Below, one piece after another: positions 2-1,711 of a DNA stretch of 58,933 nt (position 1 is its first letter; each line of letters starts with the position of its first letter). The notes under the pieces were generated by a model, which was not told where the DNA came from, searched no databases, and saw nothing but the letters and a program-made list of their open reading frames with translations. The DNA is from Myxococcaceae bacterium (GTDB lineage: Bacteria; Myxococcota; UBA727; JABDBI01). Position numbers and translations under genes: made by a program. The stretch spans positions 1-58,933 of the forward strand of contig JBAXMC010000001.1 of NCBI GenBank assembly GCA_037134495.1. The letters run 5' to 3'.

Positions 2-1711
2 AAAATTCATGAATTAATAGAATTCATAGCCAGCGCAAGCTTAAAAACAACCGAAGCGGCGACAGATGAAGCCCAGGATGAGTTAAATCGTCTAACAAGC
101 AGTCGTCACGCATTCCTCAAACAAGAAGAACCCGAAAAAACAGTTCACACCTACCCCTTAACCGTACCTGGCGCACAACTTGTTGCAGGCAACGACAACG
201 GAGAGAATGGGGACAGTAACAACGACCCTTCTCCAGCAGTTTCTCCGGCTGCTCAAGCAGAAACAAACGCAGATGAAACCCTCGAAAATTTCAGCAGCCT
301 TCTTCCCGAAAGTCTTAATCGCTACCGCCTTGTCCGTCTTTTAGGTAGAGGCGCCTGTGGAACTGTTTTCGAAGCAAAACAAGGAAACACGACATACGCT
401 ATAAAGTTTGTAGAGCTCCCAGCACGAAAACTCGACCAAGAACAAGCTCACAGAGAAGTTGACTGTCTCAGACGCTGTAACAGCTTCGCTCTCACCAAGC
501 TTTTCGAATCACATGTAGATCAAAATTGGATTATCATGGTCTTACAATATTCTTCTGCAGGAGATCTTCTAACTGAAATTGAAAACCGGAATTGCAAATT
601 ATCGCCATTTTTAGAAAGTGAAGCAAACATGCTTTTTCTTCAACTTATCTTTGCCATCAAGCATCTTCACGACAGAAATATCATGCATCATGATATCAAA
701 TCTTCCAATGTATTATTAGACATTAATGGACTTATCCGCTTAGGAGATTTTGGATTCTGTGAGCATTATGACAGATCCATTTCAGAAAATGTTGCATCCA
801 CTTCAAGAGGGACATACTCTTATGCGGCCCCTGAAGTTCAAAACTCTAATTCCTATCATCGATATAGCAAGAAAGCTGATCTGTTCTCATTAGGTGTTGT
901 TTTTTATGAAATTTTGGCTTTAAGAATACCTTTTGTCACCGAAGATACGCAAGAAAGAATAGCAAAAATTGCCCGCGAACATTACATGCCGCTCTCTGAA
1001 AACATCACTCCTGATCTAAGACTAGTGGTAAGACGTTTGCTTTCAAGAGACCCAAACCTTCGACCCGATGCAGATGAAATTTTGGCCATGCCTTATTTTC
1101 AATCTGTCGCATCTTACTTTCTTGAAAGAACAGCCGGCTTTCCTGAGCATGAAGTTATTAAAAACGAAATTTTGGGTAATATAAGAAGCCGGCTTATGGT
1201 TCATCCGAACTTTTTTGGCTCTTACGAAAGTGTTGCGTCTAAAAAGAGATCCAACGGTAATTGGGTTGAGTTTTACCTTCGTCTGAGCAGTGCCGATGAG
1301 AACGGTCAGCGGCAACTCTCTATTTATAAAAACAATTTTTTTACAAAATCCCTCATAAGCACCAAACCTCTGTCTGTCTTTGTGACGGTATTTGAAATGC
1401 CCCAACTCTACTGTTCATGTAAGCATTATTGCGCGTTTGCAATCATGACAGAAAACGGTGGGAAAGCCATATTTAGAACTGAAACCAAAAAAGACCGAGA
1501 CCGATGGGTTGCGGGATTGAGAAGCGCTTTTTCAGCACAAGCTCAGAGAACAGAATCTCTGCTCTACCTTCAATCTCAGACAACAGACCCTCATATACTG
1601 CATCCAGAGTCTGAGCCTTATTCTCCGTGCGAAGAACTTAATTCAACACCCCTGAATCCAGTCCCAGGATCCCAGAAGATAAAATCTAAAGACTGTTGCA
1701 GCGTTATGTAA
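2..1711 (+). CDS. Eukaryote-like (Hanks-type) Ser/Thr protein kinase with a C-terminal PH-like domain and a CaaX-like tail. The 5' end runs off the window.
   Basis: The frame is open from base 2, and the track ORF at 536 is only an internal Met. The upstream part encodes the N-lobe (LLGRGACGTVFEAK, YAIKFV). Further motifs are HHDIKSSNVLL, GDFGF, YAAPEV and DLFSLGVVFYEIL. The C-terminal region ends DRDRWVAGLRSAF, and the last residues are KIKSKDCCSVM. Confidence 0.85.
   Translation, partial: KIHELIEFIASASLKTTEAATDEAQDELNRLTSSRHAFLKQEEPEKTVHTYPLTVPGAQLVAGNDNGENGDSNNDPSPAVSPAAQAETNADETLENFSSLLPESLNRYRLVRLLGRGACGTVFEAKQGNTTYAIKFVELPARKLDQEQAHREVDCLRRCNSFALTKLFESHVDQNWIIMVLQYSSAGDLLTEIENRNCKLSPFLESEANMLFLQLIFAIKHLHDRNIMHHDIKSSNVLLDINGLIRLGDFGFCEHYDRSISENVASTSRGTYSYAAPEVQNSNSYHRYSKKADLFSLGVVFYEILALRIPFVTEDTQERIAKIAREHYMPLSENITPDLRLVVRRLLSRDPNLRPDADEILAMPYFQSVASYFLERTAGFPEHEVIKNEILGNIRSRLMVHPNFFGSYESVASKKRSNGNWVEFYLRLSSADENGQRQLSIYKNNFFTKSLISTKPLSVFVTVFEMPQLYCSCKHYCAFAIMTENGGKAIFRTETKKDRDRWVAGLRSAFSAQAQRTESLLYLQSQTTDPHILHPESEPYSPCEELNSTPLNPVPGSQKIKSKDCCSVM

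Follow-up and report, generated by a model that had tools for sequence, protein, structure and literature searches.

Why should a gene at the very end of a bacterial contig encode a protein kinase with a eukaryote-type pleckstrin-homology (PH) domain and a C-terminus that reads as a farnesylation signal? The question is raised by the first open reading frame (ORF) of contig JBAXMC010000001.1, from the Myxococcaceae bacterium assembly GCA_037134495.1, of which we analysed positions 1 to 58,933 of the forward strand (58,933 nucleotides; hereafter, the window). Its product, P0001, is with little doubt a eukaryote-derived kinase of the kinetoplastid NEK-PH type that has a genuine PH fold, resides in a bacterium, is probably catalytically competent, and carries a lineage-specific N-terminal extension and a unique tail with a textbook farnesylation box. 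As the best overall explanation we tentatively propose, at somewhat less than even confidence, that a protist NEK-PH kinase was transferred long ago into a lineage labelled Myxococcaceae or Deltaproteobacteria and now acts as an effector prenylated by its host. The parts of the gene, all on the forward strand, are the following:

2-1711 (+): the whole kinase-PH-CaaX ORF encoding P0001, a NEK-type kinase; 569 codons plus TAA, truncated at the 5' end
2-322 (+): N-terminal extension, residues 1-107, specific to the bacterial lineage; two short helices, a disordered Pro/Ser/Asn-rich stretch and a helix leading into the kinase
323-1099 (+): Hanks-type Ser/Thr kinase domain, residues 108-366; Pfam Pkinase E=4.7e-52; NEK-like, non-RD
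1100-1222 (+): helical linker between kinase and PH domain, residues 367-407; helices 364-378 and 384-397 in the AlphaFold2 (AF2) model
1223-1582 (+): eukaryote-type PH domain, residues 408-527; seven β-strands and a long C-terminal helix with W502
1583-1693 (+): disordered Ser/Thr/Pro/Glu-rich tail, residues 528-564; AF2 confidence (predicted local distance difference test, pLDDT) 48-66; ends in KIKSK at nucleotides 1676-1690
1694-1708 (+): C565 (1694-1696) and the CaaX box C566-S-V-M569 (1697-1708), followed by TAA at 1709-1711

Translation of 2-1711 (+) reproduced the reading given in the initial annotation, including the C-S-V-M codons at 1697-1708; the C-terminal end of the protein is ...GSQKIKSKDCCSVM*. 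The frame is open up to the first base of the contig, and no in-frame ATG, GTG or TTG occurs upstream of nucleotide 536, which already lies within the kinase domain. A complete ORF using an internal start codon is thereby ruled out, and the gene must be truncated at the contig end. The alignment of P0001 to a sister bacterial protein, P0121, begins at residue 44 of the latter, which puts the missing N-terminal part at about 43 codons or more. The first base of the contig is also where a second assembly record (ENA ERZ27300165 k141_927654, 9.3 kb) begins. At the other side of the gene, a search for a 3' terminator found none. The AF2 model of the full-length protein is of moderate confidence (mean pLDDT 60.7), and we used it for secondary structure alone, never for the interface between the kinase and PH domains. 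Within the N-terminal extension, residues 35-88 have pLDDT below 50. This extension is common only to P0001 and the bacterial P0121 (TVPG..L..G...DPSP...LEN); the kinetoplastid proteins do not have it.

The kinase domain poses little difficulty. It matches PF00069 (Pkinase) with 177.4 bits against a curated cut-off of 31.7, and its catalytic motifs are all intact: GRGACG, AIK (K135), HHD-IKSSN (D231, N236), DFG (D249), APE and DLFSLG. The match and the motifs together bear out the full Hanks set read earlier, and the residues present suggest that the P0001 kinase is probably catalytically competent. Its catalytic loop reads HHD (H230) and not the HRD of the family, which makes it a non-RD kinase. 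The activation loop is ...STSRGTYSYAAPE, compared with ...KTFCGTPYYVAPE in kinetoplastid NEK-PH kinases; the Thr is kept, and its FCGT context is altered. Among PDB sequences, the nearest to the domain are NEK1 (5.9e-33) and NEK7 (human), not PknB, in agreement with the proposal that the kinase is of eukaryotic type. An ordinary bacterial PknB-type kinase can be ruled out both by these matches and by the far closer kinetoplastid family. The linker that follows the domain is much shorter in P0001 than in the kinetoplastid homologues, where the alignment has gaps.

Is the region beyond the linker truly a PH domain? The initial annotation had recognized there a eukaryotic PH fold closed by a helix with an invariant Trp, distinct from the bacterial bPH type, and had pointed to Pfam and structure prediction as the way to check it. 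The Pfam PH profile (PF00169) matches residues 414-509 over nearly its whole length, at 18.7 bits when the full protein is searched and 22.1 bits when the fragment is taken by itself, scores that are under the gathering cut-off of 25.1. The same profile is matched by all 13 of 13 family members, and for homologues within that alignment the scores go down to 1.9e-9; the membership of P0001 thus stands by transitive homology. We modelled the C-terminal 172 residues with AF2 on an alignment of 13 family sequences; the model reached a mean pLDDT of 79.8 and consists of seven strands (408-415, 421-428, 438-445, 448-456, 460-465, 478-483 and 488-492) followed by a helix (496-527); the full-length model has the same PH topology. 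The best 50 matches listed by Foldseek against the PDB are all eukaryotic PH domains (DAPP1, TAPP1, PLEKHA7, CERT, AKT and GRK2 among them), with a target-normalised template modelling (TM) score of up to 0.83 and a root-mean-square deviation of about 2.2 Å. W502, in DRDRWVAG, is invariant across the family alignment. Model and superpositions thus confirm both the fold and its helix. The distinction from the bPH type holds as well: the Pfam scan of P0001 gave no match to bacterial bPH families at E<=1, which, together with a fold resembling eukaryotic PH domains, rules out a bPH domain. A PDB sequence search with the C-terminal 189 residues was uninformative, as it produced spurious ferritin matches at E>0.04.

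One feature sets this PH domain apart within its family. The stretch GNWVEFYLRL, taken earlier for a strand of the fold, is indeed the real strand β2, but the basic motif that the family carries in this strand has been lost: in place of W[KR][KR]RY, found in all of the other 17 sequences of the alignment, P0001 has WVEFY. The only basic residues left at the lipid-binding site are K414, K415 and R416 of the loop.

The origin of the kinase-PH combination can be traced with some precision. An exhaustive HMMER search with the C-terminal 189 residues against 1.84 billion representative proteins identified two relatives only, the bacterial P0121 and an environmental sequence, P0122. A profile made of these three sequences recovers kinetoplastid kinases of about 495 residues with Pkinase and PH domains at E=1e-45 to 1e-37, from Trypanosoma brucei, T. 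cruzi, T. vivax, T. congolense, Leishmania and Angomonas. In BLASTP, P0001 is collinear with the T. brucei protein over residues 103-511, from before the Gly-loop to the PH helix (32% identity over 468 residues, E=4e-68). Each domain points to the same family by itself. Taken alone, the kinase domain shares 40-43% identity with kinetoplastid NEK-PH kinases, at 193-207 bits, whereas the next-best kinases do not exceed 33% and 124 bits; the matches of the PH domain alone are confined to the NEK-PH family. Since both domains independently match this family, in which we place P0001 on pairwise and profile scores, the module appears to have been inherited as a whole from a kinetoplastid-like donor. 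On this homology, a protist donor supplied kinase and PH domain together, and the bacterium did not combine them itself.

According to two papers, no NEK kinase with a PH domain at its C-terminus had been described except in trypanosomatids (PMC1266030; bioRxiv 10.64898/2026.06.07.730777). Judged by sequence, NEK-PH kinases are not confined to that group, and the stated restriction is contradicted. The PH domain of P0001 is nearer to those of P0122 and P0121 than to those of trypanosomatid proteins, and the donor may therefore have been a non-trypanosomatid euglenozoan. Closer orthologues were sought by a word-indexed search of about 15 billion proteins, which found nothing nearer than 31-34% identity, and by a scan of JGI metagenomes, which gave generic kinases only.

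A gene that sits at the extreme end of a contig and has eukaryotes as its closest relatives naturally calls for another explanation, namely that a kinetoplastid fragment was mis-joined to bacterial DNA during assembly or entered as contamination. The rest of the 59-kb contig is plainly bacterial. It encodes guaA, RNase T, tgt, AhpC, ComEC, aroA, class-II 3-deoxy-D-arabino-heptulosonate 7-phosphate (DAHP) synthase, dnaA, FabH, nuoE-N, DsbA, cmk, an IS200 transposase and lipoproteins, with many 4-bp gene overlaps, and neighbours such as guaA, tgt, dnaA and nuo uphold the earlier premise of a bacterial host genome. The relatives of its DnaA are graded from 95% identity down; the named metagenome-assembled genomes (MAGs) among them bear the submitters' labels 'Myxococcaceae bacterium' (76%, GCA_015999675.1), 'Deltaproteobacteria bacterium' and 'Myxococcales bacterium'. 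A block comprising a metallo-β-lactamase (MBL) gene, ComEC and a kinase / aroA, DAHP synthase and dnaA is syntenic in related MAG contigs (L092, L094). GuaA, compared with GTDB species representatives, has a best identity of 57% with mixed phyla and is uninformative for placement.

The kinase gene itself does not look foreign to this contig. Its synonymous codon usage deviates from that of the 47 bacterial genes by z=0.02, and its GC content is 41.8% (35% at third codon positions), compared with about 43% for the contig; a codon usage exactly average for the contig excludes a chimeric join as well as a recent transfer. The junction is identical in the second assembly record, and a homologue with the same bacterial-specific N-terminal extension lies mid-contig in a related bacterium, in three assemblies. 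The environmental P0122, in contrast, is encoded on a contig (L083) that does look eukaryotic, with a coding GC content of 52-57% and a long non-coding 3' region. A eukaryotic contig or a chimera is ruled out by the overlapping bacterial neighbours, the codon usage and the related bacterial loci, and an assembly artefact of any kind is so improbable that we regard it as effectively refuted already. The kinase gene is, on its composition and setting, an old, resident horizontal acquisition.

The homologue just mentioned, P0121, offers a second view of the family inside bacteria. This protein of 402 residues is encoded at 5234-6442 (+) of a 7-kb bacterial contig (L082; GC 40-44%), mid-contig, among a SpoIID-like gene, MlaE, a diacylglycerol-kinase-like gene, aspartate kinase and DUF507. 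Near-identical copies, P0296 and P0297, are found in two further assemblies, one of which is the MAG GCA_037134615.1 'Myxococcaceae bacterium' (L095). A peroxiredoxin sharing more than 90% identity with that of the window is probably encoded in this MAG too (attributed to it by the neighbouring accession MEI6790893.1 of the same series), and the MAG hence appears to be a near relative. The N-terminal extension common to P0001 and P0121 and absent from the eukaryotic proteins implies that the two share a bacterial history. P0121 has its own start, MFKIFLILLQIGYSHA|SG, with one basic residue, a hydrophobic core of 10 residues and small residues at -3/-1. By these features and the -3/-1 rule, the N-terminus looks like a Sec signal peptide, which fits the earlier idea that the kinase is exported.

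In other respects P0121 has diverged strongly. In it, as in P0296 and P0297, the kinase domain has been gutted in frame: the Gly-loop, VAIK, DFG and APE segments are gone, and a C-lobe remnant and the PH domain are kept. The protein stops directly after the PH helix and has no CaaX box, while its β2 motif is intact (WRKRY). One might conclude that the acquired family is being lost in this clade, and that P0001 is a functionless remnant whose tail arose by read-through or a stop shift into former 3' sequence. The patchy distribution of the family would fit, since protein searches returned no homologue of the kinase from the related MAG GCA_015999675.1, and so would a tail present in one sequence only. 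Decay is nevertheless improbable. P0001 keeps every catalytic residue in an uninterrupted frame of 569 codons, and the PH domain is well conserved in both P0001 and P0121. Even the gutted sister keeps its frame open in three independent assemblies, and the ratio of non-synonymous to synonymous polymorphism (pN/pS) between two of its alleles is about 0.36, a weak indication, as 16 differences are too few to conclude from. P0121 may thus be a pseudokinase or a PH scaffold, not a dead gene.

Two neighbours of the sister gene deserve mention in their own right. Directly upstream of the kinase-remnant gene in L095 lies a Gp49/helix-turn-helix (HTH) toxin-antitoxin pair of the HigB/HigA-like kind (3776-4442, +), absent from the otherwise collinear L082. 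In L082, 345-896 (-) encodes a eukaryote-style protein with an RRM_1 RNA-binding domain; a longer reading of 195 residues (345-932) adds an N-terminal signal-like hydrophobic segment, and the protein may be another exported eukaryote-like protein of the clade.

We now turn to the C-terminus, which prompted the question. From about residue 528 to its end the tail has pLDDT values of 48-66 (means of 10-residue blocks) and no secondary structure, and this structureless Ser/Thr/Pro-rich segment is the kind of flexible linker that precedes the box in CaaX substrates. The box has Cys at -4, an aliphatic residue at a2 and Met as X at the true C-terminus. CSVM is the CaaX box of human Rheb, where it is farnesylated (PMC7255682), and the identity of the tetrapeptide supports its earlier interpretation as a farnesylation signal. 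The T. brucei farnesyltransferase readily uses Met or Gln as X, and does not use Ser, Thr, Ala or Cys (PMC3206815). Given the identity with Rheb and X=Met, the box should suit enzymes of both the mammalian and the kinetoplastid type. The adjacent C565 is a possible S-acylation site. The Cys and Lys residues upstream of the box resemble the second-signal arrangement of Ras and RhoB. Of the polybasic patch proposed earlier, the Lys-containing KIKSK is present, but it is weak as a patch.

By composition, about 1e-3 of bacterial proteins should end in C-x-[VILMFT]-[MSQAC], and about 9e-5 in C-x-a-M; among some 1,590 ORFs from 1.5 Mb of bacterial DNA, only one further ORF has a CaaX-like ending. 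CSVM alone is not significant genome-wide, because a few such ends per genome are expected by chance. The weight lies in the fact that CSVM ends a kinase-PH protein of protist origin and comes after a disordered linker, with Lys residues and a further Cys next to it. The family comparison adds a further coincidence. The kinetoplastid proteins stop 2-4 residues past ...LGI, P0121 ends in ...AFK and P0122 in ...QKSELE; in the 18-sequence alignment, the only member with a CaaX box, P0001, is also the only one without the basic β2 motif. The gain of the one and the loss of the other fit a swap of membrane-targeting devices, a suggestion based on two bacterial sequences.

These observations outline how a host-prenylated effector might have arisen and might work. 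A bacterial lineage would have taken a NEK-type kinase with its native PH domain from a kinetoplastid-like or other euglenozoan eukaryote by horizontal transfer. The N-terminal extension, with a Sec-type signal in the sister copy, would then have been gained in the bacterial lineage, and P0001 would also have gained the tail ending in Cys-CSVM. The protein would be exported and enter the cytosol of a eukaryotic prey or host, plausibly a flagellate related to the donor, where the farnesyltransferase of the host would prenylate C566 and cleavage of -SVM and carboxymethylation would follow. C565 and the KIKSK patch would provide the second membrane signal. A constitutively competent non-RD kinase would thus be anchored on host endomembranes or the plasma membrane and could phosphorylate the targets of endogenous NEK-PH kinases, its lipid anchor standing in for the membrane affinity that the PH domain lost with the change from W(K/R)(K/R)RY to WVEFY. 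What we observe here is the domain architecture, its homology, the fold of the PH domain, the residence in a bacterium and the exact motif; export, delivery, prenylation and targets are what we infer. In our estimate, the whole chain of events, from the export of P0001 and its arrival in a eukaryotic cytosol through farnesylation of C566 by the host enzyme to a role as a kinase effector anchored in a membrane, is possible and a little short of an even chance. Given a protist-derived gene, it is reasonable to think that the organism interacts intimately with eukaryotic cells. It is rather unlikely, yet worth stating, that the clade specifically preys on or lives in kinetoplastid-like flagellates and has turned a host NEK-PH kinase into a secreted effector, with the PH lipid motif exchanged for a farnesylated Cys-CSVM anchor.

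A number of findings weigh against a host-directed role. The N-terminus of P0001 itself is off the contig, so its export signal cannot be read from P0001, and a Sec signal such as that of the sister takes a protein as far as the periplasm and not, on its own, into the cytosol of a eukaryote. The check for secretion systems that had been proposed earlier came out negative for the window: none of the annotations within the 59 kb is a gene of a type II, III, IV or VI secretion system (T2SS, T3SS, T4SS, T6SS). None was present in the flanks seen in relatives either, and NCBIfam and Pfam searches with ten orphan ORFs for clues to secretion or lifestyle gave no match. No ecological evidence ties the clade to eukaryotes. 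The PH domain does not have the basic K-Xn-(K/R)-X-R phosphoinositide signature across β1-β2, and the basic patch before the box amounts to three Lys in KIKSK followed by Asp, with the last 12 residues carrying a net charge of +2. By chance alone, a genome encoding 3,000-5,000 proteins should contain a few CaaX-like ends. Conservation of CSVM in orthologues had been named as a test, and in the alignment the tail and the box occur in 0 of 17 homologues, P0121, the only other bacterial copy, and all eukaryotic ones included. None of these is a close orthologue, and because the searched collections contain no such orthologue the test has little power. P0001 is a singleton, with no tail-bearing orthologue in the about 15 billion proteins or the JGI metagenome scan; selection on the box is not measurable, as there is a single sequence.

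The main alternative is that the eukaryote-derived kinase was domesticated for the bacterium's own signalling or envelope biology, CCSVM being the chance end of a fast-evolving tail or a non-functional relic of the donor. To this alternative we give somewhat over a third of our belief. Myxobacteria-like lineages carry many Hanks kinases, and the window encodes another one, with a C-terminal PEGA domain, at 18099-19307 (-), adjoining ComEC and the MBL-fold gene. Fully ameliorated codon usage implies long residence, and a window of 59 kb free of secretion systems, a box found in no homologue and the few chance CaaX-like ends per genome all speak in its favour. Set against these are four considerations. 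The sister's N-terminus resembles a signal peptide, and a kinase in the ATP-free periplasm makes little sense for internal signalling. PH domains have no known ligand in bacteria that lack phosphoinositides. The exact Rheb box, placed at the end of a disordered linker after Cys and Lys residues, has the canonical layout of a prenyl anchor. Finally, a relic of four residues is not expected to persist unselected where overall identity has dropped to about 32%. With these points in mind, we continue to favour, tentatively, the host-prenylated effector.

The remainder of the window provides context. The nearest feature meets the kinase gene tail to tail, and we list it for context only:

1704-1916 (-): convergent ORF of 70 residues with a signal-peptide-like N-terminus and a hydrophobic C-terminal half; overlaps the stop of the kinase gene by 8 nucleotides

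Three peptidases with signal-peptide or lipobox N-termini are encoded on the forward strand: an M61-like peptidase (10155-11375), a papain-type C1 peptidase (14613-15977) and an M1 aminopeptidase with an ERAP1-like C-domain (26136-28610). The C1 peptidase is cathepsin-like, with dipeptidyl peptidase I and cathepsin B as the best PDB matches. Three exported-looking peptidases would fit a protein-digesting or predatory lifestyle. At 43744-51452 (+) there are six consecutive ORFs that begin with a signal peptide or lipobox and match nothing in Pfam or NCBIfam. Paralogy links part of them (22-30% identity), four of the six end in ..PR[TSK], and a FadL/TodX-like outer-membrane barrel lies downstream; the stretch looks like an orphan envelope or lipoprotein gene cluster. 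Between this cluster and DsbA lies an IS200-type Y1 transposase (43075-43527, -), the sole mobile-element gene seen in the window. A pair of small HTH_36/MarR-like paralogues that share 62% identity is encoded 25 kb apart (5827-6273 and 31116-31574, both -). A complex I cluster at 31782-42019 (+) starts with nuoE and continues with F, G, H, I, an unannotated stretch of 0.7 kb, L, M and N. A divergent HTH gene sits upstream of nuoE, and nuoA-D are therefore not adjacent.

Even on a conservative reading, the locus documents NEK-PH kinases outside trypanosomatids. If P0001 is indeed a host-prenylated effector, the CaaX effector paradigm would reach beyond Legionella and Salmonella to an uncultured lineage of deltaproteobacterial type and would include a kinase as cargo. 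The locus would also represent a clean transfer, from protist to bacterium, of an architecture supposed to be specific to trypanosomatids; it would name a candidate host or prey group for a clade known from metagenomes only, and reveal an unsuspected association between bacteria and euglenozoans. The two bacterial copies would amount to a natural experiment in rewiring membrane targeting, one having the basic motif without CaaX and the other CaaX without the motif. P0001 would, moreover, be a compact relative, with probably constitutive activity, of the RDK2-type kinases, which control differentiation in trypanosomes, and possibly a tool for finding their substrates. We know of no description of a NEK-PH kinase with the Rheb CaaX box in an uncultured Myxococcota-labelled lineage.

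How does P0001 compare with systems already known? The closest in architecture are the RDK2-type NEK-PH kinases of kinetoplastids (T. brucei P0126, T. cruzi P0125 and Leishmania P0135, about 495 residues), which have the same collinear order of kinase, linker and PH domain and share with P0001 the motifs (Y/F)xxAGDLxxEI, FxExEAxxLFLQ and KKADLFSLGV and a PH core of W..Y / FA / G / W. P0001 differs from them in its bacterial genome, an N-terminal extension of at least 100 residues (shared with P0121 only), HHD in place of HRD, the much shorter linker, WVEFY in place of WKRRY and an extra tail of about 42 residues (528-569) ending in CCSVM. Akt/PKB and GRK2 likewise unite a PH domain and a kinase in one polypeptide, and the model of the P0001 PH domain superposes on the PH domains of AKT and GRK2. 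These kinases, however, belong to the AGC group and not to the NEK-like one, the domain order of Akt differs, and the phosphoinositide-binding motif that is functional in Akt is missing in P0001. With human Rheb, P0001 shares an identical terminal CSVM that follows a flexible linker (PMC7255682); Rheb, a small GTPase and not a kinase-PH protein, has no homology to P0001 beyond this motif.

As for bacterial proteins acting on eukaryotes, host prenylation of CaaX effectors is established for AnkB and the Pel proteins of Legionella and for GtgE and SifA of Salmonella (PMC2916131, PMC13081727, PMC13423502). Like P0001, these are bacterial proteins with eukaryote-like domains and a C-terminal CaaX box that only a eukaryotic prenyltransferase can use. 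Unlike P0001, which is known from its sequence alone, they have been proven to be T4SS or T3SS substrates, and the bacteria that make them are known intracellular pathogens; this mode of delivery contrasts with the Sec-type appearance of the signal in the sister of P0001. The LegK family of Legionella provides the complementary comparison: these eukaryote-flavoured Hanks kinases are effectors used against protist and macrophage hosts, with established Dot/Icm delivery, but they have no PH domain, CaaX box or specific NEK-PH ancestry. To our knowledge, none of the host-prenylated effectors AnkB, Pel, SifA and GtgE is a kinase-PH protein, and P0001, should the effector explanation prove true, would be the first kinase effector anchored through a CaaX box, and the first case of a bacterium using the NEK-PH module of kinetoplastids.

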